Shown one piece after another: positions 8,987 to 29,288 of a DNA stretch of 64,000 bases. The notes under the pieces were generated by a model. It had not been told where the DNA came from and did not search any database. It saw nothing but the letters and a program-made list of their open reading frames with translations. How positions within the stretch are numbered: position 1 is the stretch's first letter; each line of letters begins with the position of its first letter. Where the stretch lies: positions 3,393 through 67,392 of the forward strand of contig PBET01000024.1 of NCBI GenBank assembly GCA_002719815.1, in the 5' to 3' direction. The position numbers and the translations under genes were made by a program. This DNA comes from Methanobacteriota archaeon. GTDB lineage: Archaea; Thermoplasmatota; Poseidoniia; Poseidoniales; Poseidoniaceae.

Positions 8987-9787
8987 TCAGTTGTCAGCCC
9001 ATGGGTCGACATCGGAGTTCCAGGTTGCATCTGCTTCAGCGGGTTCTTCCGCTTCTTCAGCAGGTTCCTCTGCTTCTTCTGCGACCTCTTCTGAATCCTC
9101 TGATGTTTCTTCTGGGGCTTCTTCTTCGGCTGGCTCTTCGACAGCTTCTTCTTCCGAAGGTGCTTCTTCAACAACGCCTTCTTCAATGAGTGCTTCAGCT
9201 TCCTCGACGGTCATTTCAGCAGCACGTGCTTCGACCATCTCATCCATACGTTCTGTGAACGCTCGAGACATGTGTTGAGATTCTCGTTCGGCTTCAACCG
9301 CACGCTCGATCATCTCATAACGTTCCTTAATGGCCTTGTTGAGGTCTTCAAAGAGTGTCATGTGAGCAACATACCAATCATCACGAGCCTTCATTTCAGT
9401 AACTGCGAGTTTCAAATCATTGTCAAGTTCTTCCGCAATTCCAAACACTTTCCCAAGACGATCTTTCTCTCGAGAATACTTCTCTTCCATTGTTTGGAGA
9501 GCAGGTTCCAAATGCTCAACACGCTTGTCTGCTTTTGTAGCCTTCATCTCAAGTTCACGAATACGGAAATCTTTCTCCGCGATAAGTGATTCTTGCGCTT
9601 CACGCTCAATCTCTTTGTCGATAATTTCTTTTTCGAGAACTTCGATCTCTGCTCGTGCATCAACAAGTTCCTTTTCTTGTGTTTCATACGCTGCAAAGAG
9701 TTTCTTCAGACGGTCTGTTTCAGTGGCGAGTGCCTCTTCAAGCTGGCCGATTCGAACTTCGGGAGTGATGGTTCCTTCTTCACTCAT
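8987..9787 (-). CDS. Acidic coiled-coil protein with poly-Glu/Ala C-terminal tail, hypothetical
   Basis: Heptad-rich LEEALATETDRLKKLFAAYETQEKELVDARAEIEVLEKEI...; C-terminus EEAEEPAEEAEEPAEADA. Confidence 0.45.
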   Translation of the reverse strand: MSEEGTITPEVRIGQLEEALATETDRLKKLFAAYETQEKELVDARAEIEVLEKEIIDKEIEREAQESLIAEKDFRIRELEMKATKADKRVEHLEPALQTMEEKYSREKDRLGKVFGIAEELDNDLKLAVTEMKARDDWYVAHMTLFEDLNKAIKERYEMIERAVEAERESQHMSRAFTERMDEMVEARAAEMTVEEAEALIEEGVVEEAPSEEEAVEEPAEEEAPEETSEDSEEVAEEAEEPAEEAEEPAEADATWNSDVDPWADN

Positions 9788-9897
9788 TTTTTCACCCGGA
9801 GGTATGCCTCCACATCAACCCAGCCGCCTTTACCCTATGAAGCCGACGCCTCGTTGAGAACGATTGCACACTTCTCGGTCCTATGTTCTATGCACGA

Positions 9898-12818: not shown

Positions 12819-13499
12819 ATGGGGATGATGTTGCTTTCGATGCCTTTTTTCGACGGATGCCATCGTCGATACATGAAGCAGGCAACAGACGTCTTCAACG
12901 ATTGGGCACACCGAGGCAAAGACGAGGGTATGGAACGTGGACACAGTCCTGCTGTCAATGAAATGTTGGAGGTTGCTTTCCAACGAGTCAATCAAGGAAA
13001 TCAACCCTTTTCATTCGCTGATTTAGGATGTGGAAATGGCTGGGTTGTACGATTGGTTGGTGGGCATGAGAACTGCATGCGAGCTGATGGTTTTGATGGT
13101 GCACCGCACATGATTGAGAAGGCAAACAACATTGATTCGAAACATGGTTATCATCTTGCTCTGTTTCCTGATACACAACCTCCTCAACAATACGATTTCA
13201 TTCATTCAATGGAATTCATTTACTACCTTCATGAACCTCAACAGATGCTACAATCAATTCACGACGATTGGTTGGCCGATGGAGGTTGGGCTGTAATTGG
13301 AATCGATCATTATGCGGAACATGAGGAAAGTCTTGGTTGGCCAGAAGCCCTCGATGTACATATGTCGACATTTACAGAGCAGGAATGGATTGCAATGTGG
13401 AATGACGTTGGATTTACTGAAATTCATGCGTGGAGAGCAAACCAATCCGAAGGAAAACCAGGAACACTCGCCATCATTGGGAAGAAAAATCAGAATTGA
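12819..13499 (+). CDS. Class I SAM-dependent methyltransferase
   Basis: Motif I FADLGCGNGWVV; divergent from pip; true start may be an internal Met. Confidence 0.6.
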   Translation: MGMMLLSMPFFDGCHRRYMKQATDVFNDWAHRGKDEGMERGHSPAVNEMLEVAFQRVNQGNQPFSFADLGCGNGWVVRLVGGHENCMRADGFDGAPHMIEKANNIDSKHGYHLALFPDTQPPQQYDFIHSMEFIYYLHEPQQMLQSIHDDWLADGGWAVIGIDHYAEHEESLGWPEALDVHMSTFTEQEWIAMWNDVGFTEIHAWRANQSEGKPGTLAIIGKKNQN

Positions 13500-16400
13500 T
13501 CCCCAACTCAAGGCCCTGTGGTGCACACATTCGTACATCGCCATTGAAAAATGGACACTTTTTGCAGATATCAATCGCTTCCATTGGTAAGCGCTTCGGT
13601 TCGGTAACACCGTTTGAATCTGCAGTAAGGGTTGCCATCCAATGCAGGAGATTCATCAGTTCTTCTTCTGCTTCTTTGCACATCTTATCCGGCATTTGAA
13701 CAAGACGTCCCGTCGTGGCGATCAAGAGTGCTGGTGGCCGAATATCTCGTCTCTTTTCAATGGGTTTTCGTTCTTCTTGCTCACGCAAAACCAATGAATA
13801 AAGCATCAGTTGCAAACGATGATTTCGTAGCATCTGAACCTCCGCTTGGTTTTGTGGTTCAAACGAGAGCGGTTCATTCAGCGTCTCGTACAACGGGTGC
13901 AGTTCGAGTTCTTCCTCTCGCGCACCTGTTGTTTTCAAATCAATAACCTGCAACCAAGCCTGTTGATCTTCACATCCTGCAACCACAAGATCTGCCTGCC
14001 CTTCAAAGAGAACATTGACCGCATCAATCACTGTTCGAAATGACTGGTCAAGTTCTGTGAGTGGTGTTCTCAAACGACCTTTCAGGTCGATTTGTTGATT
14101 GAAAGAAAACGACAACTCCGTTCGCAACCCTTCGATTTCATGGCCATGAATCGCTTGACCTTCGACCATTTTTCCTAAAGCTCCATTTGATAGTCGTTTG
14201 GCCAAATCAATGATTCGTTGCCTCGTTTGCTTCTGTTCATCGCTGGACAATCGATGCCACTCGGGTTGTGATTGCGTTGCATCATCGATTTCCTTATCCG
14301 ATAACAGGTGGTTTTGTTGAGCATTCAACCAAACTTGTCCTAATTCAAAGCCTGTTGTCTTCATTTCTGCTGGATTTGCAATTCCAATTTCAACGAGTCT
14401 GTGGAACATCGATCCAAAGGCAGTTGCCGATGGCCAGCCGACAGAATTAGCCGTTACATCTTCCCCATCGGACCGATCTTTAGTATCCTCCTCACTCGAT
14501 TCGAACTTCGTTTCTTGATGGAGTTTGAAAGGCTCAGATTGCCAGCCTCGTACATGCGACAACCAATAGCGTCGTCGGCAGGAATGGGCCGTATCTAAGC
14601 CATGGGCTGTCATCTTTAACGTCGGGGTTTGATAAACAACGGCTTGTTCAATCTCACTGTCATCTGTCGCTTGTTCAACGAGTTGTTCCATGTTCAGCCA
14701 GTTGGAAAGTACGGAAGTTGGTGATTGTTCGGCAAAGCAATCAGGATGGTGATACATACGCAAGCTCTGTAGCGAATCTTGCATAAATCCACTCGACGTA
14801 TACAACGCATAGGGATCAAACTTCAACGTCTGCTCGCCATATTCTGCTAAACGTTCTCCTTGAACATCGTTGGTAAGACTCCAAGGCTGTTCATCGCCTG
14901 ATGCCAATCCCATGTATCGGAAACCTTCAAGCATCAAATCGCCCATGTTGTTCCCTTTTGCATTCACCTTCATCTCAACCATTGCATCATCACTCAACAA
15001 GCAAGGAGCATTTGGCGAGCCAACGAAGATCAAGCGATCTTTCACCCTGGTAAGTGCAACATAGAATTGACGACGCAATTCAGCTTGATTTTGTGCCTTG
15101 TTCATTTGTTCAGCCAACATCCACAAGGCATCTTCAGGCTTCTCTTTCGACTTCCATGGCTGAATACGGCCTGCAATTACATCTGGTGTAATCAAGACAT
15201 TGTTCTGAGCTTCAATGCTTGAACTGCGACGTCCTGCTTCAAACAATCCTGTGACGATCACAACCGGCGCTTGGAGACCTTTTGCCCCATGAATTGTCAT
15301 GATCTGAATCGCGCCACTTGTTGGTAAAGAACGGGCTTGGGGACCTTTGTTCCCAAGTGTTCCGAACGCCTTCATCTGATCAAGGATCGAGGCGGGTTCG
15401 TGTCCTGATTCACCACCTAATTTTTGCAACATTGCGTACCATGTTTCAGCAACTTGTCGTTCAGATTCATCTGGGAATGCGATGAGGAGATCGCTGTAAT
15501 CCAAGACAGCATCAAAGATTTCGTACATGGCGCCAGAATGTACCAAACGAGCGCATGCTTCCATGAGTGGCCCTTGAGGTTCGCCATCAAAATAGTCGGA
15601 AAAGAAGTGCCAATAATTGTCCACATCCTTCGTTTGGAAAATCTCCTCAATCTGTATGGATGATGCCCCAATAATTGAGGAACGAAGGACGGAATGGGCG
15701 GCATGTCTTGACCCTGGTCGTGCGAGAAGTTCCAACATAGCCATCAACGGTTGAACGACGGGTTGCTTGAGCAACTCACCTTGTTTATCAGCCATAACCG
15801 GCAATCCACGAGCTTGGAGTCGTGCGATTAAGTCGGGAATGTGCTTTCGTGAGTGGACGAGAATCATCACATCTTCAGGCAGAATTGGCTCTTCTGGTTC
15901 TACTTCAACAAAATCTTCCGCTTCTGTTGACCATATCCGAGTTGGTGAGCCTCGAACCAAGGCATCCAATCGAGAAGCGATAAGTTCATGTTCCAAATGA
16001 CGGAGATTTGCATTTCCTGCATCGAACAAGTTGTACCCTTGTGTAAGGCCAAGTGGTAGTTCCTCGGTATCGTTTTGAGTCGGAAGAAGCCACTCGATTG
16101 TCCCTATGCGTTCCGTATCTCGTCCAGATTCTAAGGGCTGAGCAGTTGCATGGAAATCGCCTGGGAATTGGTGATGCCGATGATTAAACGTGTCATCAAA
16201 CATATTGTTGAGCGTTTGAAGTAGGCCAGGTGCTGTTCGGAAATTCGTTCTCAGTTGAATATGGCCTTCGGCTCGTTCAACGATTGTATCATCATCGATG
16301 GCGAGACCTGCGTCGTCAATTCCATAGGAAACGTAGTCGTACGGAGCTGATTTCTCATCTCGGGAATAATCAGCGGCGGAGATGAATGAACCAGATTCAC

Positions 16401-18447
16401 CACCTGCGCCGACGGGCCGAGGATCTCGGCCGTGCCCTTCTTGAGTAAAAGTCTCCATCCGTTTCTCATTAGCCTCGATCTGGTTCGCTACACGAATGGA
16501 TGCAACCATTCGACGCATAACCGTAACCTCAGCCTGACGGAATCGGTAGATGCTTTGCTTCATATCACCAACAATGCAGATGGTTGGGTCCCAGGGACCT
16601 GCTGGTTCAGGGTGTTCTTCGGAAATGCCCTCTCTTCGCCCCCAAAGTCGCGAAAGGAGACGAGCATGTTCTGGATTCGTATCCTGATACTCGTCGATAA
16701 TGAAGGCTCGATATCGTGCACGAATTTGCTTTAATAGCGCAAATCTTCGTTGAAGATCAACGTATTTCTCTTCATCACGTTGCATAATGGTCAGTGCTCT
16801 TCGAATATGTTCATCCGACCATGGCTCATCACCAAGGTCATCCAATGCCTGGACAGCCTCGGGCGGATACCAATGACGAACGATGGCTGGACAGCGAACA
16901 AGGAGTAAATCGCCGACCATGACTTGAACATCGTCAAAATCATGCGCTTCTTCTTGTGCCTTCAAGTGACGAAGTAAATCCTGACAGCCTGAATGAACTG
17001 TATACAAATCGTTCAGAACTTCAACCTGAAGGTCACTAGAAACCCTCTGCATACCAGATGGTGGTTCGGTACCCAACGAAACGCCCAGTGGATGGCGGTC
17101 GTATTTTTCATTCGCATCTCGATGGACAAAAGGCCGTACAGGATTGAGGCAGTAGGCAACTTTTGCAAGCATCAACACCAGACGCCCATCACTTGGGTCA
17201 TGAATCCGGTTTTGCAAACGAGTTGCAGCCTTGGAAGCATCTTTCATGAGTTGTTCCTTGGTTGCCTCCTCAGATTTACGCTTGAAGACTGATGACCACG
17301 TCATCAAGCCTGAAGGCCAGTCTGCTAGCGTATTTGCTCGGGGGAAGTGCCCGTCCTTGAGAATGGTTGGTGCTGGCTCCTTCAACTGTGCATGCGATGC
17401 GGCCGCTGCAACCACCTGGTACAACCACTGAAGTTGTTCTATCGGAGTTGTAGGCAGTGCTTCCCGTGCCAAATGAGCGAGTTGATTGAAACGAGTATTT
17501 GTTGTAGCAACTTGCGCTGGAGCGACAATCACAGAATGATGTTCGAGGAAAACATCAACCCATTCGTTAAGGAATGCATGTACATCTTGAACGACCGGAG
17601 TGATAAGGTGGTGACACTCCTGTAAAATCATGTCCTCAATAAGTCGGTAATCTGGAGGTGTGTCACCATCCCATGGTAAACCAGTTCGAATCGAACGTGA
17701 GCGAAGCCGTCGCTTAGATTCCTCGACAAATAGCGACGATTCTAGCAATCCTTCCAATGCCGTTTGTGCACTTGCTTGACCTCCAAGCCGGATTGCGAGA
17801 CGATTGCGGGCAGCGATGAAAGCATCAGCTGATTGAAGCATGCCCGCTTCGATTGCATCGCGAGCATTTCGTATACGCCAAGCCGCATTCAATGCTTGAC
17901 TTCTCAAAAGAGGGGCTTTTTCTTCAGGAAGTTGTTCTCGACTGACGTGGATTGCTACGAGATCGATATGCGGTGAGAGAATTTCCGACAGGAACGCATC
18001 GATGGTCGATATTGGTGATGATTCAAGCAACGACATCAGCATCGAAACATCGCCTTGGTGACGCAGACGTGGGTCATGCATCCCCATTCGGTCATCGTCT
18101 TTTACAGGATGAGCACGAAGCGATTGAATCCTTTGTCGAATTCTTGACCGCAGTTCAGATGCCGCCTTTCGAGTGAAGGTAATCGCGACGATTTCTTGTG
18201 GCAACAGTCCTTTCCATTCATTCAATGGAGTGCGATCTTTCTTTGCTGCGAGAACGTGGCCTGCACCATACTGTTCCAACCGAATTGGTGGCGGCAAAAC
18301 ATGCGTAGCTCGTTGCTCTGCTGAAAGAAGATGCTGAACATATCGTTCAGCCATAACGGTGGTTTTACCTGTTCCAGCACCAGCATCCAATGCGATGTGT
18401 TGATCGAGATTAAGACCCAGTCGCTGACTTCTGTTGAAGGAAATCAC
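13474..18447 (-). CDS. addA: AddA-like UvrD-family helicase with C-terminal 4-Cys PD-(D/E)XK nuclease domain (1657 aa)
   Basis: Helicase motifs I AGAGTGKTT, Ia FTRKAASELRSRI, II IDEYQDTN, III GDMKQSIYRFRQA, IV NFRTAPG, V TIHGAKGLQAPVVIV, VI YVALTRVKDRLIFV. C-terminal nuclease VIDLKTTG and Cys ligands ...HSCRRRY... CKKCPFFNGDVRMC. GTG start overlaps stop of upstream addB-like (GTGA). Confidence 0.75.
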   Translation of the reverse strand: MISFNRSQRLGLNLDQHIALDAGAGTGKTTVMAERYVQHLLSAEQRATHVLPPPIRLEQYGAGHVLAAKKDRTPLNEWKGLLPQEIVAITFTRKAASELRSRIRQRIQSLRAHPVKDDDRMGMHDPRLRHQGDVSMLMSLLESSPISTIDAFLSEILSPHIDLVAIHVSREQLPEEKAPLLRSQALNAAWRIRNARDAIEAGMLQSADAFIAARNRLAIRLGGQASAQTALEGLLESSLFVEESKRRLRSRSIRTGLPWDGDTPPDYRLIEDMILQECHHLITPVVQDVHAFLNEWVDVFLEHHSVIVAPAQVATTNTRFNQLAHLAREALPTTPIEQLQWLYQVVAAAASHAQLKEPAPTILKDGHFPRANTLADWPSGLMTWSSVFKRKSEEATKEQLMKDASKAATRLQNRIHDPSDGRLVLMLAKVAYCLNPVRPFVHRDANEKYDRHPLGVSLGTEPPSGMQRVSSDLQVEVLNDLYTVHSGCQDLLRHLKAQEEAHDFDDVQVMVGDLLLVRCPAIVRHWYPPEAVQALDDLGDEPWSDEHIRRALTIMQRDEEKYVDLQRRFALLKQIRARYRAFIIDEYQDTNPEHARLLSRLWGRREGISEEHPEPAGPWDPTICIVGDMKQSIYRFRQAEVTVMRRMVASIRVANQIEANEKRMETFTQEGHGRDPRPVGAGGESGSFISAADYSRDEKSAPYDYVSYGIDDAGLAIDDDTIVERAEGHIQLRTNFRTAPGLLQTLNNMFDDTFNHRHHQFPGDFHATAQPLESGRDTERIGTIEWLLPTQNDTEELPLGLTQGYNLFDAGNANLRHLEHELIASRLDALVRGSPTRIWSTEAEDFVEVEPEEPILPEDVMILVHSRKHIPDLIARLQARGLPVMADKQGELLKQPVVQPLMAMLELLARPGSRHAAHSVLRSSIIGASSIQIEEIFQTKDVDNYWHFFSDYFDGEPQGPLMEACARLVHSGAMYEIFDAVLDYSDLLIAFPDESERQVAETWYAMLQKLGGESGHEPASILDQMKAFGTLGNKGPQARSLPTSGAIQIMTIHGAKGLQAPVVIVTGLFEAGRRSSSIEAQNNVLITPDVIAGRIQPWKSKEKPEDALWMLAEQMNKAQNQAELRRQFYVALTRVKDRLIFVGSPNAPCLLSDDAMVEMKVNAKGNNMGDLMLEGFRYMGLASGDEQPWSLTNDVQGERLAEYGEQTLKFDPYALYTSSGFMQDSLQSLRMYHHPDCFAEQSPTSVLSNWLNMEQLVEQATDDSEIEQAVVYQTPTLKMTAHGLDTAHSCRRRYWLSHVRGWQSEPFKLHQETKFESSEEDTKDRSDGEDVTANSVGWPSATAFGSMFHRLVEIGIANPAEMKTTGFELGQVWLNAQQNHLLSDKEIDDATQSQPEWHRLSSDEQKQTRQRIIDLAKRLSNGALGKMVEGQAIHGHEIEGLRTELSFSFNQQIDLKGRLRTPLTELDQSFRTVIDAVNVLFEGQADLVVAGCEDQQAWLQVIDLKTTGAREEELELHPLYETLNEPLSFEPQNQAEVQMLRNHRLQLMLYSLVLREQEERKPIEKRRDIRPPALLIATTGRLVQMPDKMCKEAEEELMNLLHWMATLTADSNGVTEPKRLPMEAIDICKKCPFFNGDVRMCAPQGLELGINSDFSSQ

Positions 18448-21400
18448 TTTGTTTCACCTCCAATGGATGCAGAAGAGCACGCACTTGCGAGTGAACAATA
18501 CTTGCAGTGATCTCCTGGTGCAGGATGATTCCAGCCGAGTTCACTTGCATCCTGTGCCCGGATTGCGGCAGTAATTCTTGAACTCATCCACGCCCGGAAA
18601 CTGTTACTCTCCGGTGTTGTTCCTTCAGTTGGTATACGGAAATGATTTCCAGAGTAAAACGTTCGAGTTCCGATGGTTCGGCTTTCCTCAAGAAAAGCAA
18701 AACTCGGATCGAGTTCAAGGAGATGTTCCGTATCATCGCCCACTTCTGAGATACCAACGCCAATGACGCGATCGCCTGGATGTGCTAATTCCCAAGCACG
18801 AGCATAGAGTGCTAATTGAATCTCCTTGAAGAGGCCCGCGACATGTCGAATGCCATCTTCACCAGGTTTTGGTCCTTCGATGGTTTTGAGGTCTCGAATG
18901 ATGATGAAGCGCTTCGCAGGAGGTCCACTTCCATCAAAGAAAAGTGGCATCCCTTCTGCGCTCTCATCATAGAGCCCACGCTCGGTTAGTCGTTCAAGGA
19001 GCGATTCATCGAGAACAAGGTGATCAACGCGATCAATTCGCCCACGTAACTTGATGCATGAGGTTTCAAATTGATCATCAAACCCTTCGATTTCTACACT
19101 CAACTCCGTTCCATGTTGCAACGCCCATTCACTGGCAATTGGTGCTGCTGAGGTCAGGTTGAGATCTGCTAAAAGTAGACGTCCGAGTCGCCCTCCAATC
19201 GGAAGCGTTCCGTTGCCTTCAAGCCAATCGTTCCAATCTTCAGGCGAGCAGCCAATCAAATCATTGCAGCGATGAACGGAAACTGCATTTGTTCTCGATA
19301 ACCAGGGAGCGATTTCAGACAAATGCCAGAGCAAACTTTCCCATATTTCTTGGTTTGATAGTGAAGTTCCTTGATGCATTGGCGTACCTTCGGCCAGTGG
19401 CGTCCCTCCTACTTCAATTCCAAGAAGTGTCATGAGATGTTCCTCAATGGCATGAACCAACGTTCCTTTTGTGAGTGGCGCAATGTCTTCAGAGGGCTCG
19501 GGAGTGTTGTCCGTGGCATCGAGTGTCTGTTCAGACCATGCTTGTCGGGGGCAAGTCAGCCAAGGTGTTAATCGGCTTGTTGACCATGTCTTTGATTCCG
19601 TTTCGATCGGTTGACTGGAAAGAATTTCGTTCAGGCTTGGTGAACCATACGTAGGCGGAGGAAGCGGACGAGGGTCGAGTGAAGGCCCCCTCGAATTGCC
19701 ATTCTTCTTGTATCCGAGATGCGGATAGGATGCTGAGGTTCGACCACCACTCACCTCGGCTTGAGAGACCGTGGGTTCGATGACAAGGCCCGTTGTTGTG
19801 AGCAAGCTCTCCCGTATCTCCCATGGCAGAATGCTTCCATTTGCAAGTGGCTTGAATTTTGGTTGGCGACGATAGCGATCGAGATGCACATCGCGTTCAA
19901 ATCGATTCGCTATGGTATTCGCTGACTGAATCGTTCCACTCGGAGTCCGCAACGCTTTCAATTCAAGACCAGTCTGTTGTTGCAGATCTCGTTGCATGTT
20001 CTCTGCTCGTTCAAGTTCCACTTCACCACCGTTCACAGATAATGAAGAAGTTCGATATGTCAGCCAATTTCCTGTTTCTCGAGTCACAATTGACCATCCA
20101 GCACCATCAGAAACTTCTTCCTGCAGGAACGCTGGAATGGCCGCAAGATTCCGTAAATCACCTTGCAGTTCAACGCCTGAAAGGTACTCGACAACCGGTG
20201 TCGAATTACCCGCAGATTCATCATGTTCGGTATCGAAGAGGATCACTTGTTGGCTTGAATTTAGCACAGATTTGAAGAGATGACGCGCCTGACGAACGGG
20301 TAAGTCTCCATCATTCAAGCCTAATTCGACTCGAACAGAATCGTCAATCCAAGGCACTCGCTCAGGCTTCATCGACCATGACTCAGCATCAATTCCAACG
20401 AAGAGAGTGAGGTCCGATGCTACCCCAAACGCTTGCTTTGGTGTACAGATATGTACATCGAAATGACGAACTCGATTCATAGGTAGTTTGGTTTGATCGG
20501 CTGCTAACCGACAAAAATCAATGAATGGAAGACTCGACTGATATTGGAGCAAACCATCAACGGATCGGACCCATGATTGCACGGCACCTACGGAGGCATC
20601 GTAATGCCGTGTACGTTCAAACAACGCCTCCCAGTCACATGCATGTAAAATTGTGCTGAGTACGTCTCGTGGCGTTTTACTTGGCTCGGGCAAGGGTAGA
20701 GAAATGTTTGATGACGCGCCAACGAATGGATTCGCAAGGAAGTTTTTCTCGGTTTCATCGAGTAACGCAGTCCATGATGTTGCAAGGCATTGCAACCACC
20801 ACTGCGTCTCCTCAATCGCTCGCAATTCTTCCTCACGACGATAGGCTTCAACAGCATATGGTTTTGCAACAGCTAAAGAGCCAAGCCACCGTTGGAGCGC
20901 TCCTTTTCCGCCAAGAACGTGGAAACTGCGGCCGATGTTTTCAATCACGTCCAAGTGTGGCCTTGGCCGCCAATCCTTCTTTTCTGGATGGGTCAAATCG
21001 GAAAACAATTTGCCAATAATCGGGAACGCCTTTGACTGGGCGATATCGAACAGTTTAGCTGTTGACCATGCATCTTGGCCATTGGGAATTGACAGAAATC
21101 GAAGTATTGCTTGTATAGCAGAGGTACTTCCAACTGAATCTGCTTGAGTATCGCATGTAATTCCAATGCGCTGCAGACGGCGAATCCATTCCTTGTGGCG
21201 GCCCTTGTCGGCATCGATGAGAAGAATACGTCCTTGTTCATGCTTGTTGAAATGATTGATGACTGAAATTGCGGCATCTGGAATCTGCGAGGCTCGGTCG
21301 AAACTCAGTAAGTGGATTCCTTCTGTCGCGTAATCAGCGTTACCGGATGCTGGAGGCAGAACGGTATGACGTGGGACCCATTCTGGCAGTTGGTCATCGC

Positions 21401-22148
21401 GTTCCAAAAGCGGTAGTTCATCATCGATGTATGCTCCATGAAATCCGAGACGGAATGAGCCTGTGACACAAAGATGATGGATTGGGCTTCGCACTGATAA
21501 GGCCTTGAGAAACTGCTTCTCATCTTCATGAAAGTCAGGCGGATGGTTGAGAAGGAGGATACCACGAATTGCTCCAAGCGTGTAAGGCGTTGGAACATTC
21601 AAATCGGCGAGTGCTGAACAAATTCGGGCGATGACGTGGTGCTCATGCAGAAGATTTTCGTTTTCAAACGATGAAAGAATCCGATCTGCTTCAAATGCGC
21701 CGGGATCTTCTTCCCACGTCGAAAGGATACCATGTTTTGTTGCATACGCATGGAGAGAAAGCAAACGCTCTGATTTTGAAAGTGTCCATGGCCTGGTCAC
21801 GTCGGGATGGAGGCGAGGAAAACGATGATCTTGCGCTGCAGAGGCAAACTTTTCGTGAACTTGTACAAGACCAGTCGATGTTCTTGGCACAAGAACAGGT
21901 AGTCGGAGATCGATCGTTAAGGACTTCAAGAGTCGTTGAAGCGTTGTGTGTCTGCTTGAATCAACAGAGCCCGCTTTCTGAAGAATGGCCTGGATAGACG
22001 AGGACCGAGTGACTTCATTCGGATAGATGACCAATAAATCGTCCCGTCCTGTTGCAATTTCATCCACAACCCAGGACGGGACGGTCGTATCGAAAGGGCA
22101 TGACTCTACTGTGATGTTCTCAGCCATATCCTCCCCACCCATCTTCAT
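18444..22148 (-). CDS. addB: AddB-like subunit: helicase-like scaffold without obvious Walker A, plus C-terminal Cas4/AddB-type 4-Cys PD-(D/E)XK nuclease (1234 aa)
   Basis: C-terminal ...GDHCKYCSLASACSSAS Cys cluster; size and position upstream of addA-like as in the Bacillus addB-addA operon; no GxxxxGK[ST] found by eye. Confidence 0.55.
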   Translation of the reverse strand: MKMGGEDMAENITVESCPFDTTVPSWVVDEIATGRDDLLVIYPNEVTRSSSIQAILQKAGSVDSSRHTTLQRLLKSLTIDLRLPVLVPRTSTGLVQVHEKFASAAQDHRFPRLHPDVTRPWTLSKSERLLSLHAYATKHGILSTWEEDPGAFEADRILSSFENENLLHEHHVIARICSALADLNVPTPYTLGAIRGILLLNHPPDFHEDEKQFLKALSVRSPIHHLCVTGSFRLGFHGAYIDDELPLLERDDQLPEWVPRHTVLPPASGNADYATEGIHLLSFDRASQIPDAAISVINHFNKHEQGRILLIDADKGRHKEWIRRLQRIGITCDTQADSVGSTSAIQAILRFLSIPNGQDAWSTAKLFDIAQSKAFPIIGKLFSDLTHPEKKDWRPRPHLDVIENIGRSFHVLGGKGALQRWLGSLAVAKPYAVEAYRREEELRAIEETQWWLQCLATSWTALLDETEKNFLANPFVGASSNISLPLPEPSKTPRDVLSTILHACDWEALFERTRHYDASVGAVQSWVRSVDGLLQYQSSLPFIDFCRLAADQTKLPMNRVRHFDVHICTPKQAFGVASDLTLFVGIDAESWSMKPERVPWIDDSVRVELGLNDGDLPVRQARHLFKSVLNSSQQVILFDTEHDESAGNSTPVVEYLSGVELQGDLRNLAAIPAFLQEEVSDGAGWSIVTRETGNWLTYRTSSLSVNGGEVELERAENMQRDLQQQTGLELKALRTPSGTIQSANTIANRFERDVHLDRYRRQPKFKPLANGSILPWEIRESLLTTTGLVIEPTVSQAEVSGGRTSASYPHLGYKKNGNSRGPSLDPRPLPPPTYGSPSLNEILSSQPIETESKTWSTSRLTPWLTCPRQAWSEQTLDATDNTPEPSEDIAPLTKGTLVHAIEEHLMTLLGIEVGGTPLAEGTPMHQGTSLSNQEIWESLLWHLSEIAPWLSRTNAVSVHRCNDLIGCSPEDWNDWLEGNGTLPIGGRLGRLLLADLNLTSAAPIASEWALQHGTELSVEIEGFDDQFETSCIKLRGRIDRVDHLVLDESLLERLTERGLYDESAEGMPLFFDGSGPPAKRFIIIRDLKTIEGPKPGEDGIRHVAGLFKEIQLALYARAWELAHPGDRVIGVGISEVGDDTEHLLELDPSFAFLEESRTIGTRTFYSGNHFRIPTEGTTPESNSFRAWMSSRITAAIRAQDASELGWNHPAPGDHCKYCSLASACSSASIGGETK

Positions 22149-22240
22149 GCGTGGCGACAGTATAAAACTGAACGTTCAAAATTTTGTTATTTTTTGTAGG
22201 GTGTTGGCATTTTTCATCGATTCTGAGGTGGATGTCGGAT

Positions 22241-22293
22241 AACATGAATTGTAACATGAATAATTCATGTTTTGTATAATTCAGAACATGAAT
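22241..22293. promoter_or_regulatory. Candidate operator: three direct copies of AACATGAAT (22241-22249, 22253-22261, 22285-22293), the middle one part of a perfect 17-bp palindrome ACATGAAT-A-ATTCATGT (22254-22270)
   Basis: Read directly in the AT-rich divergent intergenic region between the addB-like gene (-) and the TFB-like gene (+). Confidence 0.4.
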
Positions 22294-22300
22294 CGTTGGA

Positions 22301-22308
22301 TTTAAATA
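22301..22308 (+). promoter_or_regulatory. Archaeal TATA-box candidate TTTAAATA upstream of the TFB-like gene; GGAGG Shine-Dalgarno at 22410-22414
   Basis: Matches TTTAWATA consensus; ~114 bp upstream of the ATG at 22422, implying a ~85-nt leader; SD 7 nt from ATG. Confidence 0.3.
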
Positions 22309-22421
22309 GTACGGCGTCCATAAAGATACTCCAGCGCGTCGGTCCGAGCCCAATCCCACTTATTCCACCAACCCCTCGGACTTAATCATGTTGGAACAAA
22401 CAAGAACAAGGAGGACAAAAT

Positions 22422-23495
22422 ATGACGAAAAAGTGTGAAGAATGTGGCAGTTATGACTTGAAAGCGGACAACATCCGAGGCGAGGTGGTTTGCAACGATT
22501 GTGGACTTGTCATCGAGGATCAAGCCTCGGCGACCCAAAACGACAATGCAGGAACAATGTGGGGCGAAAATGCATCCAACACTCCGACCAAAGATGAAGC
22601 CAAGATTAAGACTGGCTCGAAGGGTAATGCGCTTGGTTCCTACATCGGTAAGCCAAATGAAGCGAAGGGCAAGTGGAAAATCCTACGACACCTGCACGCT
22701 CGAGATGTCAAGGACCTGCACCCAATGGCGCAAGCTACGATGGATGCTGCAAAGGAGTTGGCTGGCAAGGACAACGCCATGAAGGCGAAGAAAGTCATCA
22801 CCCTAGCGACCGTTCCACTCGATGATGAGAAAGCGAAGGCGTTGCGAGAAATCGCTGATGAGGAGGAAATCATCCTTCCAAAGAACTCTGTTTGCCGAAA
22901 GAAAACCCGAGGGGGAAGCACCCAGAACAACGAGAAGTTGCTTGCGCTGGGTTGTCTGCGAGCACATCAGGAGCGAACTGGCAAAATCAACATCGATTGG
23001 CCCCAGATGGTTGAAGGCACTGGTTTGACCATGGCTCAGGTTGTTGATGCTGCAAAAGTCATCATGAAGTACCTTAATCTATGCGAGAAAGCGCATCTTA
23101 TCGAAGAGCGAGCAGACCGAAGAACTGTTCATCTCGAGTTGCGAAACACCGAAATCGAGAACACTACGCTTCGACTGAAGCAACTTCTCGAAGATGTTGA
23201 TGAATCCGTGAAGACGCAAATCATGGACGATTACAAGCAACGACTCTTCACCTTGGGTGAGCCGACATTAGGCGGTTCACCGTTCTCAAGCGAGAACATT
23301 GAGGCCAAGGTCCTCTGCGCAATTCTCTTCCAAATCTCATGCGAGTCCTTTGGTGTTGAACAAGGACGGCTCGAGAACATCGCTCATGCGATTGGTCGAT
23401 GTCGAAACACCATCAAGAACCGCCTCAAGTCCCTTCGAAAGAAGGTGGCGTCTGGTGAGCTGGTTGACTTTGGTGTCTTGCAGAAGAAGCACTGA
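22422..23495 (+). CDS. Divergent TFIIB/TFB-like protein: canonical N-terminal Zn ribbon and two cyclin-like repeats, but lysine-rich linker lacking the usual B-reader (GPEWRAF) signature
   Basis: KKCEECGSYDLKADNIRGEVVCNDCGLVIEDQ; cyclin-like LLALGCLRAHQERTGKINIDWPQMVEGTGLTMAQVVDAAKVIMKYL and AKVLCAILFQISCESFGVEQGRLENIAHAIGRCRNTIKNRLKSL; basic composition in an acidic proteome. Confidence 0.6.
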   Translation: MTKKCEECGSYDLKADNIRGEVVCNDCGLVIEDQASATQNDNAGTMWGENASNTPTKDEAKIKTGSKGNALGSYIGKPNEAKGKWKILRHLHARDVKDLHPMAQATMDAAKELAGKDNAMKAKKVITLATVPLDDEKAKALREIADEEEIILPKNSVCRKKTRGGSTQNNEKLLALGCLRAHQERTGKINIDWPQMVEGTGLTMAQVVDAAKVIMKYLNLCEKAHLIEERADRRTVHLELRNTEIENTTLRLKQLLEDVDESVKTQIMDDYKQRLFTLGEPTLGGSPFSSENIEAKVLCAILFQISCESFGVEQGRLENIAHAIGRCRNTIKNRLKSLRKKVASGELVDFGVLQKKH

Positions 23496-23503
23496 ATCGT
23501 GAG

Positions 23504-24442
23504 ATGGATTATCTCATTAAGGAGAGGTTCGTCCAGCGATACATGACTCGATTGCTCGTTGTTGGAGTTTTAGTTGTCCTGATGGTTTCTGTTGTACCTG
23601 TAGCGCATGCTGCGGAGATTAAAGAACTTGAAACAGGCATGCTCTTTGGTGGACTTCATGGAATGGCGAATGAGACCATCGTCGTCAACAGTAGCCTAGA
23701 AGATCTTCCTGCAATTGCTGAAGATTACACAGCCACCTGGTGTGGAAATTGTGTTGAAGTCGGCAATGCGCTCGAGACTGTGGCGGAGAACATCAGCATG
23801 GAGATCTATGCTGTTCATCGGAACATCTACGAGACTCAGGATCCACTAGGCAACGAGAATGTCGACGCACGCTTTAGGGACCGATACGATATCTATGCGC
23901 CAGAATTCAAACCTCCTGTGGCCGGTATCAATGGCAAGTACTCCCTTCGTGGTAGCAACCCTGTTGGTGATTCTCTGGAATCTGACTTTGCAGACTTAGC
24001 ATCACAACCGCATAATCTTGGAGATGGTTCCGTCACAATGACATGGACACCAACGGGTGATAATTCAGGAACTGTCGCTTGGAGCATTGATCAATCAACC
24101 AGTGCAGTTTACAATGTAACCATATGGATGGTCGAGAAAGAAGCTTACTTCCCAGATGGTACAAACAACCAGATCTACTACCATCACATTGTTCGTGAAA
24201 TCATTGATGTGGGAACTGTTACTGAAACTGGACTGAGTACGGGAACTGAGCAGATTACCTATGCCGATGCATACGATGATGATGACCTTGAAGTCCATAT
24301 CATGTTCCATGAGTACATCGAACGTCCTGAAATACAAGACGAGACCCCAACAGAACCTACCTCAGAGGATACACCCTTCCTCTCCATGCCTTTGACGATA
24401 CTTGCCCTTCTTGCAGTAGCCCTACGGCGACAGGATCAGTAG
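23504..24442 (+). CDS. Secreted thioredoxin-like CxxC protein with PGF-CTERM-like C-terminal anchor
   Basis: Signal peptide LLVVGVLVVLMVSVVPVAHA; TWCGNCVEV (WCxxC); C-terminus PTEPTSEDTPFLSMPLTILALLAVALRRQDQ. Confidence 0.5.
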   Translation: MDYLIKERFVQRYMTRLLVVGVLVVLMVSVVPVAHAAEIKELETGMLFGGLHGMANETIVVNSSLEDLPAIAEDYTATWCGNCVEVGNALETVAENISMEIYAVHRNIYETQDPLGNENVDARFRDRYDIYAPEFKPPVAGINGKYSLRGSNPVGDSLESDFADLASQPHNLGDGSVTMTWTPTGDNSGTVAWSIDQSTSAVYNVTIWMVEKEAYFPDGTNNQIYYHHIVREIIDVGTVTETGLSTGTEQITYADAYDDDDLEVHIMFHEYIERPEIQDETPTEPTSEDTPFLSMPLTILALLAVALRRQDQ

Positions 24443-26709
24443 AAATCAACCATGTTTGCGTGAAGTCGAGCATCAACTTCTGGCATGCGATCAGGCGGAC
24501 GTCCCACCTCGATGAAACGAAGAACGTAATCATCGATGTTTGCAAATCCAAACTCTTCGGTCATCGGTTCCATGAGTTCTCGCAACGCCTGTCGAGGATC
24601 TGCAATTGGGAAATCTCGACGGATGAAGACTTGGTTTAATTGACGATAACGTGCATGTCTGTATCCCAAAATCTCAAGGATTCGGCGAAGTGCATCTTCT
24701 TCTTGGGCAGATCGGATGGTTAGTCGCAAACGACATCCTTGCATCCGGAACATTCCACGCACACCACCGAGTTCGACCTGATGGCCAATCGGTTGCAGCG
24801 AAAGTGCCTCCCACACCAGTGGCATCGTTCGATACCAGCGATAGAATTGATCATCTTGACGAGGCTCTCTGGGTTCTTCTTCATTCTGAAACGGGGGATT
24901 TACAACAAGATTCTCTCGGATTTGTTGCCATCGAGGGAAGATGACTTGTTGTTGCAACCTCTGACGATAAAAATCTCCTTCTAAGATTTGATCATCATCA
25001 AATTCGTAATCAAAATCTGGATTTAAGTGGCCAGGCATATCGAAACCAACTTCCCGACCGGGACGTTGTTTCCAGTCTGCAACAATTTCCTCATCAGTCA
25101 TCAATTTCAAAGAACGGAATGCGATTGGTTCTTCTTCTTCCCCATCACCAAGGAGAAGACGATGAAGATGAAATCTGTGTTGCTTCCCAGATCGCTTGTA
25201 GAAGTCTTCTGGGTCCGCCCCTGTGTCTTTTTGAGCTACCCCGATTGGTGGCTGGGTCAGCAAATGCATCTGCAAACTATTCACCCGTTTCGAAGTCGTG
25301 ACATCTGAGAGAAGCGAGAGTATGACAATTGCAATGGTATCCCCTATCGGGATATCTTTGTGGTAGTTTCCTGTATGAATGCAAATCGAATGCCGATGCG
25401 TCACAGTCTTACCAACACCATGAATTTTGAAAGGTGCATTGTGTGCACCACGACCAATTCGAACCTCGTAGAAATGGCCAAGCATCCCTCGAACGAGCAT
25501 GCGGTCTCGATGAACCCAGGTATCGTTCGGGAATTGTTGAAGAACGCCTCGCAAAAATTGCATTGAACGGCGGAAGGGGACATTCGCAGTCTCAGCATTT
25601 TCATATGCTGCCGTCCAATTCATCTGCGTAGCAATGAGCCATTCGCCTTCTTTGGAACCGTGTGGGGAAGATCCCCATGAAATCAATCCAGCCAAGAGGC
25701 CTGGCACGAAGGGAATTTTTGCTCGGCGTACACTTCCATTCTTCGCCAATGTTCTAAAACAGAGATTTCCCTTAGAATTGACCATAAATGGGAAACTAAC
25801 ATTTGCATGTTTCACGGATTCTGACAACTCAATCCAACGTTGAACCCAGGGCCATTGTGAAGGCGGAATCGCCCTATTTTCTTGGTTCCGAATAAAGCGC
25901 CGTGCAAATTTCATCCGTTGTCTTGGTCGACGACCTGCCATTCGTTCCATCAAGTGGGACGACCAATCAGACCCGTCAGAAAAGAGTGGTTTCTTTTTAC
26001 GGCGCTCGTTTTGATCTAAGAGAAACGATGTTTGGACAAATACATCAAAGGGAGAAAGGAGTTCACGTTCAAATTGTCCAAACAGTCGATGGTAACGCTG
26101 TAGGATTCGTCGAGGGCGTCCTTGAGGATCGAGTGTTTGGTACAACCCACTCAACGCTAAGAAGAGCTTGACGAGATCCCAACCTTTGCGTTCTTCAGGA
26201 TTCAGGAGAAGCAAGAGGTACTGCTCCATCGGAATTCGAGCCTCGTGAATCCGCCCGTCGATGGTCATTCGTCCATCGATAAATGCGAGAAGCGTTCCAT
26301 CCCACATCACGAAGCCTTCCTCAAGGCGTTCCTTTTCGTAACCAGAATAACCTGTTTGCTTTTCGAGTTTTTCAATAAAGATGGACTCTTCTTCTTCGGG
26401 AAATGGGGAGTGGCGGACGGGATCTTGATCCGCCTCATCAAGACGGGCCCAGTCAACATCGGGCGTATGATTCATGAAGCGTTCGAGATTTCCCCAGCGC
26501 TTTTTCAATGAACGAACTGGCCCGCCAAGGACCGATGCCATGCGTTGATGGACTTCAAGAGGCAACGATGGTGCCCATTTACTCTCTTCGGTCAATTCGA
26601 TGCAGCGTATGCAGATTGGACAATTCGTTTCAGTATTTTCATTTTGGCAGATGCCACAGGCTTCCCCAATCATGGGGATACTGAATGTCGAGGTGTTAAA
26701 AAGTTTCAA
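24436..26709 (-). CDS. Large conserved hypothetical protein with N-terminal multi-Cys zinc-finger (757 aa)
   Basis: CGICQNENTETNCPICIRC near the N-terminus; no recognisable catalytic motif (HGVGKT is not a canonical Walker A); stop overlaps start of downstream threonine aldolase by 4 bp. Confidence 0.4.
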   Translation of the reverse strand: MKLFNTSTFSIPMIGEACGICQNENTETNCPICIRCIELTEESKWAPSLPLEVHQRMASVLGGPVRSLKKRWGNLERFMNHTPDVDWARLDEADQDPVRHSPFPEEEESIFIEKLEKQTGYSGYEKERLEEGFVMWDGTLLAFIDGRMTIDGRIHEARIPMEQYLLLLLNPEERKGWDLVKLFLALSGLYQTLDPQGRPRRILQRYHRLFGQFERELLSPFDVFVQTSFLLDQNERRKKKPLFSDGSDWSSHLMERMAGRRPRQRMKFARRFIRNQENRAIPPSQWPWVQRWIELSESVKHANVSFPFMVNSKGNLCFRTLAKNGSVRRAKIPFVPGLLAGLISWGSSPHGSKEGEWLIATQMNWTAAYENAETANVPFRRSMQFLRGVLQQFPNDTWVHRDRMLVRGMLGHFYEVRIGRGAHNAPFKIHGVGKTVTHRHSICIHTGNYHKDIPIGDTIAIVILSLLSDVTTSKRVNSLQMHLLTQPPIGVAQKDTGADPEDFYKRSGKQHRFHLHRLLLGDGEEEEPIAFRSLKLMTDEEIVADWKQRPGREVGFDMPGHLNPDFDYEFDDDQILEGDFYRQRLQQQVIFPRWQQIRENLVVNPPFQNEEEPREPRQDDQFYRWYRTMPLVWEALSLQPIGHQVELGGVRGMFRMQGCRLRLTIRSAQEEDALRRILEILGYRHARYRQLNQVFIRRDFPIADPRQALRELMEPMTEEFGFANIDDYVLRFIEVGRPPDRMPEVDARLHANMVDFY

Positions 26710-27790: not shown

Positions 27791-28132
27791 TTAGAGCAAT
27801 TTCAATTCACCAGTCAACGCATCCAATTTTTCTTCTTCATCAGGCCCCAAGGCAAGAACTGTGTAAGACCCAGCAGGAATCTGTGTATGCCCTGCATCAT
27901 GAATCTTTGAAGTTAGAATCTGATGGTGTTTGGCTTGTTGTTCAATCTGCTCAAGTTGACGAACATCATTCGCTTTAACACAGACTTTTTTCTGTCCAGT
28001 AGAAAGCCATGCATCAAGCAGTTCTGGACGAAGTTCTCCTGATTGGAGCGTCGCTTTAACTGCAGCATGACCGACTTGGGCGCCAATTTTCCCCTTACCC
28101 ATTTTCAATGCGTGATTGATGACAAAGACCAT
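27791..28132 (-). CDS. pth2: Peptidyl-tRNA hydrolase, archaeal PTH2 type (copy 1)
   Basis: MVFVINHALKMGKGKIGAQVGHAAV; start placed at internal Met (ORF extends to 28210). Confidence 0.75.
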   Translation of the reverse strand: MVFVINHALKMGKGKIGAQVGHAAVKATLQSGELRPELLDAWLSTGQKKVCVKANDVRQLEQIEQQAKHHQILTSKIHDAGHTQIPAGSYTVLALGPDEEEKLDALTGELKLL

Positions 28133-28219
28133 TTTCAATGGTTGATCGTTTTTCACAAAGCGTTCAAATTTGGGTGCGGTGATTCGGTGCAGAAACGAGC
28201 GGATCCCCATTCAATCACC

Positions 28220-28564
28220 TCATTCGTACGTCTTCAATTCTCCGAAAAGTGAATCCATGGTGTGACGAGGGGCGGGCCCCACACCAAGAACCGTTACCGT
28301 CCCAGGAGCGACTTCTGTCAGCCCAGCATCTTTGATGAGTGCAAATGGAAGTGATGCTTCTTCTACCAAATTGAGGAAATACTCGATCTCTTCTTCGTCA
28401 TCGACTGCAAGACAGATTTTTCGAGATGCAGATTCTTTCCAACGCTGAACCATTCTTGAATGCGTTTTCTTTGCACGCTGAAGTGATGCAACGGCAGCGT
28501 GAGCGCACTGAACTGCGAGTTTACCTGCTGAGAGATTGAGATCCGTGCGACATAGAAATGCCAT
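28220..28564 (-). CDS. Peptidyl-tRNA hydrolase, PTH2 type (copy 2, tandem paralog)
   Basis: MAFLCRTDLNLSAGKLAVQCAHAAV...GTVTVLGVGP; start placed at internal Met (ORF extends to 28618). Confidence 0.7.
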   Translation of the reverse strand: MAFLCRTDLNLSAGKLAVQCAHAAVASLQRAKKTHSRMVQRWKESASRKICLAVDDEEEIEYFLNLVEEASLPFALIKDAGLTEVAPGTVTVLGVGPAPRHTMDSLFGELKTYE

Positions 28565-28574
28565 TGTGGGTGGA

Positions 28575-29288
28575 TCAGAAAGTGCTGACATGCTCACTCT
28601 CCTGCTGAATGAGTTCACTGTTTGACCGGTTCATTTGCAGGATGCGATCGAACCACTGGCCAAACCACATTGCGAAGAACAGGTTGCCAAGGAAGTGGAG
28701 TACATCGAACAACAGTCCATTGACAAGATAAAGACCAAACTCAAGTGCTGACATGCTTGAATCAATGATTGAAAGTGATACAATCAAACTGAATACAGGC
28801 ACACTCCACAATGCTGAGAAAGCGAGTTGCGTCATTGATAGGTTTCCATTTGCATCATGGACGCTGATTTGCGAGGCAACAAGGGCGACCGTTCCCCATC
28901 CTAAGATTTGGAACAAACTCCACCAACCATGACCAAGTACGGCATTGCTCGCAAGCGTCACAAGAACTGCGAATGCAAAACCTCGTTGTGCTCCGAATTT
29001 TGAACCGACCAGAACAGCGAGTATCGTTACCGGCATGACGTTTGGAATGAAGCTCATCGCAATACGGGAGACTGAAGCAATTGCAACGATCAGAAACAGT
29101 GGCCATAACCATGTATTTCCATCCTTTTGAGGTTTCACCAACAACCAGATGGCGATGAAGAAGAGTGTCGCATGAGCCAACAACAAGACTGTGGGAGATA
29201 CGGTAGGCCCGTGCGTACCTATCGCGCTCAGCATGCTCCTCCGAGCCGACGGACAGCCTTGAGTGTTACCGCTCAAACAGGTCGCCAT
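28575..29288 (-). CDS. Polytopic membrane protein, hypothetical (possibly an ECF-transporter S-component-like protein)
   Basis: 6-7 hydrophobic helices; 16-bp overlap with upstream PQQ-propeller gene suggests the true start is internal. Confidence 0.4.
   Translation of the reverse strand: MATCLSGNTQGCPSARRSMLSAIGTHGPTVSPTVLLLAHATLFFIAIWLLVKPQKDGNTWLWPLFLIVAIASVSRIAMSFIPNVMPVTILAVLVGSKFGAQRGFAFAVLVTLASNAVLGHGWWSLFQILGWGTVALVASQISVHDANGNLSMTQLAFSALWSVPVFSLIVSLSIIDSSMSALEFGLYLVNGLLFDVLHFLGNLFFAMWFGQWFDRILQMNRSNSELIQQESEHVSTF

Follow-up and report, generated by a model that had tools for sequence, protein, structure and literature searches.

The 64,000-nucleotide stretch of contig PBET01000024.1 analyzed here (hereafter, the window; from a Poseidoniaceae archaeon) encodes at positions 22422..23495 of its + strand a complete, ATG-initiated open reading frame (ORF; 357 residues, stop codon included in the coordinates) for a protein resembling transcription factor B (TFB). 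The protein is a TFB paralog that occurs throughout the Poseidoniales, had previously gone unannotated, is very divergent, and has a rebuilt B-reader; the kind to which it belongs, the alternative TFBs, is already known. With moderate confidence, we regard the gene as a paralog that has been inherited vertically, evolves fast, is restricted to Marine Group II (MGII) and its relatives (Poseidoniales), and encodes an alternative initiation factor. An initial annotation made from the sequence alone had proposed an extra, specialized member of the TFB family that lacks the canonical B-reader motif, and the evidence described below supports that proposal. In current annotation the members of the family are labeled 'hypothetical' or 'TFIIB-type zinc ribbon-containing protein'.

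The ORF is a genuine gene on which purifying selection acts. Its homologs form 64 clusters at 90% identity that represent several thousand metagenomic sequences, and comparison with the 79% identical ortholog in L001 (one of the orthologous loci described below) gives a dN/dS of 0.059 (pN 0.127, pS 0.719; dS is near saturation). A Shine-Dalgarno sequence, GGAGG (22411-22415, + strand), is located 6 nt before the ATG. Most database homologs (P0002, P0007-P0044) and the L001-L003 orthologs (10001-11161) have a 386-residue gene model with a 29-residue N-terminal extension; in the window this extension is ruled out by an in-frame stop, in L001 a TTG with GGAGG before it aligns with the start, and the extension would span the conserved 5' leader between the TATA-like box and that TTG. 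The 386-residue calls are probably over-extended, as judged from these sequences. The named homologs are Candidatus Poseidoniaceae archaeon, Candidatus Poseidoniales archaeon, TOBG Euryarchaeota archaeon metagenome-assembled genomes (MAGs), and Thermoplasmatota archaeon, and come from marine sampling, including Tara. The gene had initially been viewed against the multiple TFBs of haloarchaea, a comparison probably prompted by the ~47% GC and the acidic proteome of the window; the named homologs and the ordinary chromosomal genes of the window place the organism in MGII, within the phylum Thermoplasmatota, and a haloarchaeal origin is rejected.

Zinc ribbon, cyclin core, and helix-turn-helix

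The full TFB architecture is kept. The TFIIB-type zinc ribbon seen in the initial annotation occupies residues 3-33 (RGEVVCNDCGLV; 22428..22520, + strand) and is matched by Pfam PF08271 with an E-value of 4.9e-9 (36 bits vs a cut-off of 29). Its pattern is CxxC-x15-CxxC (Cys 5, 8, 24, and 27); among 28 family members C8, C24, and C27 are invariant and C5 is nearly so, and 26 of the 28 match PF08271. Against the PDB, the family profile finds the ribbon of Pyrococcus furiosus TFB (1pft, E 9e-5), which is the sole match in sequence and profile searches of the PDB with the TFB-like protein.

The two cyclin-like repeats that had been reported as visible are present, but they cannot be demonstrated as a sequence match. 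PF00382 does not match the window protein at E<=1, is absent from the family listing of the 28 members, and is negative for all of the tested relatives from the hidden Markov model (HMM) search described below; NCBIfam PRK00423 gives 27.7 bits vs a cut-off of 384, and these derive from the ribbon only. The repeats are invisible to curated sequence models and need more sensitive methods. By profile-profile and structure comparison, both share homology with the core of TFB. A1, which aligns 19 members of the family with at least 50% identity, matches an alignment of nine canonical TFBs (A2) in hhalign with Prob 99.0% and E 2.8e-18 over 284 columns, from the ribbon through the last helix; a broader alignment of the 28 family members (A4) matches one of ten Thermoplasmatota TFBs (A3) with Prob 98.1% and E 8.6e-14 over 278 columns. 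With a canonical TFB as query, tblastn matches a single ORF in the 64-kb window, the TFB-like gene (361 aa, 21% identity), and the window is otherwise without a TFB.

The AlphaFold2 models computed from A1 and A4 (pLDDT 70 and 79, respectively) show a ribbon of three strands, a linker of low confidence, and helices that are confident between residues 101 and 344. Repeat 1 extends over residues ~101-223 (22722..23090, + strand) and includes the family motif LPKNSVCRKKTRGGS, which is aligned to canonical LIRGRS; repeat 2 extends over residues ~224-344 (23091..23453, + strand); its first helix is long (233-254), and its family motif is LGEPT. In the hhalign alignments, TRGGS in the window protein corresponds to IRGRS in canonical TFB, SPFS..AKVLCAILFQIS corresponds to GKSP.G..AAAIY, and RNTIKNRLKSL corresponds to TEVTIRNRYKEL in the last helix of the canonical helix-turn-helix (HTH).

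That last helix in the window protein (residues 328-344, RNTIKNRLKSLRKKVAS; 23403..23453, + strand) is aligned by hhalign at the position of the helix with which TFB recognizes the B recognition element (BRE); in both runs the family pattern RcRNtIKnrLk.L is aligned with canonical GVTEVTIRNRYKEL, that is, TIKNRLKSL with TIRNRYKEL. Helices are predicted at 317-324 and 328-344 in the AlphaFold2 model, Pfam HTH_36 gives a weak match at residues 317-341, and the basic residue at the K/R position of the helix is retained in most of the distant orthologs. In TFB, the last HTH helix contacts the BRE (PMC6101591). An HTH with a BRE-recognition-type helix thus appears to be retained, at the level of the motif.

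The same comparisons bear on whether a TFIIB fold has been recruited outside transcription, for example as a DNA repair or replication scaffold, in the way that ORC6 uses a TFIIB-like fold. We consider such a role very improbable: in the structure comparison TFIIB, Brf1, and TFB are the best-scoring and both repeats superpose jointly, and the zinc ribbon and the TIKNRLK helix are each TFB-specific, ORC6 and cyclins being without the ribbon. The top seven Foldseek matches in the PDB are all TFIIB or TFB (with weak E-values). Only the fold is shared with Brf1, Rrn7/TAF1B, and viral TFIIB-like proteins; the identities are <=16%, and the window protein is without the C-terminal extension of the Brf1 type. 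Relative to canonical archaeal TFB (P. furiosus TFB1; the Pyrococcus woesei TFB core, 1AIS; PF08271 plus PF00382; PRK00423), the window protein is ~20% identical, is missed by PF00382 and PRK00423, exceeds it by 45 residues (repeat 1 has additional residues, and the first helix of repeat 2 is extended), evolves much faster, and has NDNAGxMWGE..NTPTK in place of GPEWRAF.

The initial annotation had also remarked on a basic protein amid acidic neighbors. This is correct as a description (pI 8.41, net charge +4, lysine 10.4%; most neighbors have a pI of about 4-6, the window having a GC content of ~47% and an acidic proteome), but not as an oddity: sampled canonical TFBs have pI 8.5-9.9 and net charges of +4 to +24, with one exception at pI 7.5 and +1, so that the window protein, with +4, is near the bottom of the TFB range. 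Where the genome is richer in GC, orthologs use arginine in place of lysine (e.g., P0071, with K 4.9% and R 8.5%), and several orthologs are acidic (pI 5.2-6.6). This exchange with genomic GC rules out 'lysine-rich' as a defining trait of the family; the lysine-rich, basic character is a compositional trait of a low-GC lineage.

The linker in place of the B-reader and B-linker

The region equivalent to the B-reader and B-linker comprises residues 34-100 (22521..22721, + strand), as placed by alignment, hhalign, and the AlphaFold2 model. The ~90-residue linker described initially (GKPNEAKGKWK...ALRE) extends into the first helices of repeat 1; the linker from ribbon to core is the ~34-100 segment. 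In ten Thermoplasmatota TFBs, the corresponding region has invariant D48, G50, P51, W53, R54, A55, and F56, followed by R66, G68, and P70, then by K78, G79, L80, S81, T82, and I84, and finally by Y105, R106, L107, R108, K109, W110, and Q111. As had been noted, there is no GPEWRAF-like element in the window protein: a D-x-GPEWRAF-like B-reader motif (the canonical helix and loop read D-x-GPEWRAF...R-x-R-T-G) was not found in this protein or in the family alignments, and no GPEWRAF residue is in register.

The family instead has its own motif, NDNAGxMWGE..NTPTK..KIKTG.KGN, followed by LGSYIG (residues 71-76), which resembles the B-linker strand, and by the basic KGKWKIL (residues 82-88). Within the Poseidoniaceae, S36, D41, N42, W47, G48, E49, N53, T54, P55, T56, K61, I62, T64, G65, G68, N69, L71, G72, S73, Y74, G76, G83, W85, and K86 are near-invariant, and the mean conservation of the linker (0.77) is as high as that of the repeats (0.70-0.72). 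Alignment of A1 with A2 places GLGSYIG on canonical GLGTEIG; the canonical B-linker strand is LSTxIG, within a strand-and-helix pattern GLSTxIG ... RLRKWQ. The better AlphaFold2 model has low-confidence helices at 43-47 and 81-96 (the latter over KGKWKIL, pLDDT ~50), that is, at the positions of the B-reader helix and the B-linker helix; low confidence in the linker is expected of a region that orders only inside RNA polymerase. For comparison, the boundaries in P. furiosus TFB1 are ~40-47 for the B-reader helix, 48-58 for the loop, and 59-64 for the strand, and, in the B-linker, 71-76 for its strand and 84-98 for its helix (PMC13502027, PMC6212726).

By manual count from the last Cys of the ribbon, the Trp falls at +20 vs +15 in canonical TFB, the TG at +37/38 vs +29/30, the B-linker strand at +44 vs +42, and the KW of the B-linker helix at +58 vs +72; the distance from ribbon to core is ~74 residues vs ~83 in canonical TFB, with a slightly longer reader part and a shorter linker-helix part. 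The initial conclusion that no B-reader or B-linker is recognizable therefore has to be revised, because the segment has a near-canonical length, is strongly conserved, contains LGSYIG, and has low-confidence helices at both helix positions. The canonical B-reader motif appears to have been replaced by a lineage-specific motif that is itself under purifying selection, and the B-linker strand appears still recognizable. The correspondence has limits: the two hhalign runs align the linker differently, so residue-level equivalence to the B-reader cannot be claimed, and in distant orthologs 'N...GE' is the sole surviving signature of the linker, the LGSYIG and KGKWK motifs being conserved in the Poseidoniaceae only.

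A protein that keeps the ribbon and core and is missing the canonical GPEWRAF residues could be a regulator that does not initiate, that is, one that occupies the TBP-DNA complex or the dock on RNA polymerase without forming the open complex and so competes with or represses canonical TFB; mutations in the B-reader disrupt promoter opening (PMC13502027). We consider this unlikely, if not strikingly so. The Poseidoniaceae linker is as strongly conserved as the repeats, which suggests a specific functional contact rather than a dead spacer, and the purifying selection that acts on the linker makes an active alternative factor likelier than the inactive or competing one suggested initially. The accompanying premise that TFB paralogs retain the B-reader is incomplete: the B-reader of P. 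furiosus TFB2 is highly divergent (PMC13502027), and Sulfolobales TFB3 has no B-finger (PMC6101591).

Locus, evolutionary rate, and promoter region

An exhaustive HMM search of 1.84 billion cluster representatives gave 138 hits; beyond the ribbon-only matches, these include ~20 full-length relatives of 364-404 residues (E 1e-29 to 1e-11) and a second group of ~330-380 residues (E 1e-10 to 1e-4). The family is confined to Poseidoniales-related lineages. Eight lineages were examined for synteny (the window, L001-3, L004-6, L090, L091, L092, L093, and L094), and in all eight the TFB-like gene, with identities down to 25%, is at the same locus, head-to-head with an addB-like/addA-like pair. In the window this pair is divergent from the TFB-like gene (13474..22148, - strand) and, by Pfam, encodes a UvrD helicase with a PD-(D/E)XK domain (addA-like, 1657 residues) and a PD-(D/E)XK protein (addB-like, 1234 residues); the names addA and addB are given to the pair in a published Poseidoniales table (PMC9723583 supplementary file 4). 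On the other side, the gene order in the MGII loci is a thioredoxin-like protein, an unknown protein of ~750 residues, a threonine-aldolase-type lyase, two PTH2 proteins, a PQQ-repeat protein, and GatE.

The thioredoxin-like gene (23504..24442, + strand) starts 8 bp past the stop codon of the TFB-like gene and is probably co-transcribed with it; its 312-residue product has WCGNC and hydrophobic segments at both termini (at the C terminus, an anchor with RRQDQ after it), and is matched weakly by Pfam Thioredoxin (E 0.0023). A co-directional thioredoxin-like neighbor is found in L001-6 and L090-092 and in neither L093 nor L094.

At the distant loci, the TFB-like protein is 25-26% identical to that of the window; the corresponding values are 61-66% for the lyase, 46-62% for PTH2, and 32-37% for the addB-like protein. 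It follows from the shared locus and these identities that the gene is old and evolves fast, and that its inheritance has been vertical.

This history bears directly on the initial suggestion of a plasmid or viral source. Codon usage is atypical for the window: the third-position GC content (GC3) of the TFB-like gene is 0.57 vs 0.35-0.48 in 27 other window genes, with synonymous shares of 73% for AAG, 75% for AAC, 81% for ATC, and 84% for CGA, and no ATA, GTA, or AGG. Archaeal viruses, including Poseidoniales viruses, also encode TFBs (PMC10768690). Nevertheless, a foreign origin is extremely improbable, since the orthologs have the same chromosomal position across the Poseidoniales, in eight lineages, and GC3 is raised also in the L001, L004, and L091 orthologs, which argues against recent transfer. 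The bias is toward C-ending codons in the two-fold families, as translational selection usually produces, and suggests high expression. No homologs were found in 50,697 phage records (the Poseidoniales virus ON649702 is not among them), IMG/VR, plasmids, or PHROGs, and the matches in BFVD are only generic viral TFIIB folds with identities of <=16%. Known archaeal-virus TFBs are readily found by a canonical TFB query and not by the window protein; a viral search with A3 gave one AT-rich viral contig that is unrelated to MGII.

The intergenic region between the addB-like and TFB-like genes is 273 bp and contains footprints common to the window, L001, and L004, among them the Shine-Dalgarno sequence. 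A TATA-box-like TTTAAATAG (footprint GGATTTAAATAG; 22301..22309, + strand) is the candidate promoter of the TFB-like gene, as inferred from sequence, and is within a block, (G)GTTTAA(A/G)TAG, that is conserved in all three; a further footprint, TTAATCATGTTG, is located at 22386-22397. Toward addB, GGTATAAAAG (22159-22168; TTTTATAC on the - strand) is the likely TATA box of that gene. For the addB-like ORF (18444-22148, - strand), we prefer a start at Met8 (~22127), the ATG of which is preceded by GGAGG, to that at 22148, because the TATA-like TTTTATAC (- strand, 22160-22168) would otherwise be 12 nt from the start codon.

Between the two candidate promoters is a conserved inverted repeat, AACATGAAT-A-ATTCATGTT (22253..22271), flanked by extra half-sites ACATGAAT at 22242-22249 and 22286-22293; the latter is within a conserved block, AACATGAATCG (22285-22295), just upstream of the TATA-like box. 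Four of the nine ACATGAAT matches in the window are located within 52 bp. An inverted repeat, AACATGA-N(3-7)-TCATGTT, is also found 5' of the orthologs in L001-3 (L001 9920-9934), L090 (twice, 7767-7801), L091 (7820-7834), L092 (7902-7918), and L094 (7774-7788), and is kept although the TFB-like proteins of L090, L091, L092, and L094 are only ~26% identical to the window protein. In L004 (~9830-9850) both arms have changed together, to AACAAGAAT-A-ATTCTTGTT (CATG to CAAG and CTTG). The chance expectation for the promoter repeat is 2.8 per 64 kb.

The spacer is 3, 5, or 7 nt in different lineages; this is unusual for the site of a dimeric regulator, so an RNA or DNA hairpin is possible. An RNA reading is given no support by Rfam (no match) or by the predicted fold, which is not significant (z -0.9, the spacer length varying between lineages). 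The repeat could be a DNA operator or a hairpin, and the conservation of the element suggests that expression of the TFB-like gene is probably controlled through it.

The conserved operator-like element in the shared intergenic region, together with the head-to-head arrangement with addB and addA in all eight lineages (including L093 and L094, in which the downstream neighborhood is rearranged), would fit a DNA-damage-response factor that is tied to the adjacent addAB-like operon, is induced via the inverted repeat, and resembles TFB3 in role. Sulfolobales TFB3 is a UV-induced TFB paralog and co-activator, specialized, regulated, and linked to DNA damage; like the window protein, it has a zinc ribbon and no canonical B-finger (PMC6101591). 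We regard this reading as decidedly improbable. The whole 20-kb region is syntenic in MGIIa and MGIIb, including unrelated housekeeping genes (PTH2, GatE, and MCM), so adjacency to addAB is by itself weak evidence; the gene that shares an operon with the TFB-like gene encodes a membrane protein of thioredoxin type and is not a repair gene. TFB3, furthermore, is a small protein without the HTH and most of the core, its C-terminal domain being truncated (PMC6101591), whereas in the window protein the two repeats are complete and the HTH is present.

Several other features of the neighborhood can be recorded. The next gene in the conserved order (24436-26709, - strand) encodes a 757-residue protein that is without a Pfam domain and has a Cys-rich motif near the N terminus (CGICQNENTETNCPICIRC). 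Its place beside the TFB-like gene is conserved throughout MGII, and its rate of evolution matches that of the TFB-like protein (28-29% identity in L090-092). The tandem PTH2 paralogs (27791-28210 and 28220-28618, - strand) are kept as a pair in all of the MGII loci examined. Repair-type genes that are usually bacterial are found in the window: in addition to the addA/addB-like pair, a PD-(D/E)XK nuclease adjoining an RNase T-like exonuclease and a LigA-type NAD-dependent DNA ligase with a BRCT domain (these three at 52745-53977, - strand; 51943-52770, + strand; and 58829-60949, - strand). An ORF at 8987-9787 (- strand) encodes 266 residues with 25.6% glutamate, a pI of 4.2, and no Pfam match. 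The window also contains ordinary chromosomal genes, including those for MCM, GatE, two PTH2 proteins, Trm1, an AIR-synthase-like protein, an Obg-like GTPase, NAD-dependent DNA ligase, and PAC2 chaperones.

Canonical TFBs and the role of the paralog

Whether the protein is an extra TFB or the sole one was addressed by a search for canonical TFBs in the same order. Among the best 120 matches to a profile of the nine canonical TFBs, none is labeled Poseidoniales; cluster look-ups of the abundant canonical-TFB matches gave Thermoplasmata and methanogens, and the best 80 loci in a scan of genome contigs with Thermoplasmatota TFBs are all from Thermoplasmata or relatives, which is uninformative and not evidence of absence. 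P0111, a canonical TFB with a similar linker (GLGSFIGKP), was considered as an in-lineage parent; its contig context is unrelated.

A published gene table for the MGIIb MAG SIMO Bin 19-2 is informative (PMC9723583 supplementary file 4, Damashek et al. 2021). It lists tfb_3 (308 residues, K03124; best eggNOG match MG2_0083, E 5e-190), tfb_2 (326 residues, K03124; arCOG01981 at E 3e-71, best match MG2_1391), a 73-residue ribbon protein, and two TBPs; the MG2 proteins are from uncultured Candidatus Poseidoniales archaeon (taxid 274854). Since canonical TFBs exist in Poseidoniales, the window gene appears to be an additional paralog beside these conserved proteins. In the same table, addA resembles MG2_0300 and the threonine aldolase resembles MG2_0295, which fits the six-gene order of the window and suggests, by gene order only, that MG2_0298 is the ortholog of the TFB-like gene. 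The TBPs of SIMO Bin 19-2 are genes 724 and 1247, and for tbp_1 (177 residues) eggNOG gives no match. The divergent TFB could pair with a divergent TBP; the 64-kb window contains no TBP.

That the protein is the main, general TFB of the Poseidoniaceae is highly improbable. The codon bias, toward C-ending codons, AAG, and CGA and shared by the L001, L004, and L091 orthologs, is what would be expected of a highly expressed gene; however, in published annotation both MGII families have a highly conserved canonical TFB (MG2_0083, tfb_3), the window gene evolves far faster than its neighbors, and it is apparently absent from the syntenic site in a MAG of the MGIIb genus O1.

The analysis as a whole points to a specialized, regulated alternative initiation factor as the most likely role. 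The ribbon would dock on RNA polymerase and the core on the TBP-DNA complex, as in TFB; the factor would serve a subset of promoters, its own expression being set through the inverted repeat beside the TATA-like box, and housekeeping initiation would be left to the canonical TFBs reported for Poseidoniales genomes. The remodeled B-reader may alter promoter opening or start-site behavior, as described for P. furiosus TFB2. This is the closest functional precedent: a full-length paralog that coexists with a canonical TFB, has a B-reader and a B-linker that both diverge strongly, and still supports transcription, with a promoter-opening defect that is partly rescued by TFE-alpha (PMC13502027); its transcript is up on heat shock (PMC6101591). 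In architecture the window protein fits this type of alternative TFB; its core repeats are beyond Pfam detection, its replaced linker is strongly conserved, and its lineage is Poseidoniales rather than Thermococcales. Orthology to TFB2 is unlikely because the family is confined to Poseidoniales-related lineages.

Several points weigh against an alternative initiation factor. The family is known from sequence and structure models. Its cyclin repeats are too diverged for Pfam, and contacts with TBP and DNA are predicted only. GPEWRAF, the set of invariant B-reader residues, matters for promoter opening (PMC13502027) and is not kept. The fast evolution (25-26% identity vs 61-66% for a neighboring enzyme) is unusual for a core initiation factor. 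Coexistence with canonical TFBs is seen in other Poseidoniales genomes, via the published table, and not in the 64-kb window from this genome. Finally, in SIMO Bin 19-2 (genus O1), addB is directly followed by one 310-residue ORF and then by the aldolase, so the TFB-like gene is apparently missing there; this argues against an essential role, and the gene may be dispensable.

A bolder proposal, which we consider quite unlikely, is that Poseidoniales carry a third, lineage-specific TFB with a rebuilt, selected B-reader that is induced via an inverted-repeat operator and steers RNA polymerase to a stress regulon (e.g., DNA damage or light, including addAB). If true, Poseidoniales would have a stress-response system built on a TFB and separate from both Sulfolobales TFB3 and the TFB networks of haloarchaea.

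The archaeal host has a single RNA polymerase, and TFB paralogs are the archaeal counterpart of alternative sigma factors. Poseidoniales are among the most abundant planktonic archaea; the MGII archaea, uncultured, globally abundant, and with gene regulation that is barely characterized, carry a TFB-derived factor that standard annotation has missed. The conserved inverted repeat offers a handle for finding the regulator and the inducing conditions. The family is also a natural experiment on the B-reader, in which the canonical motif is gone and its replacement is conserved, and could reveal which properties are needed for promoter opening and start-site selection.

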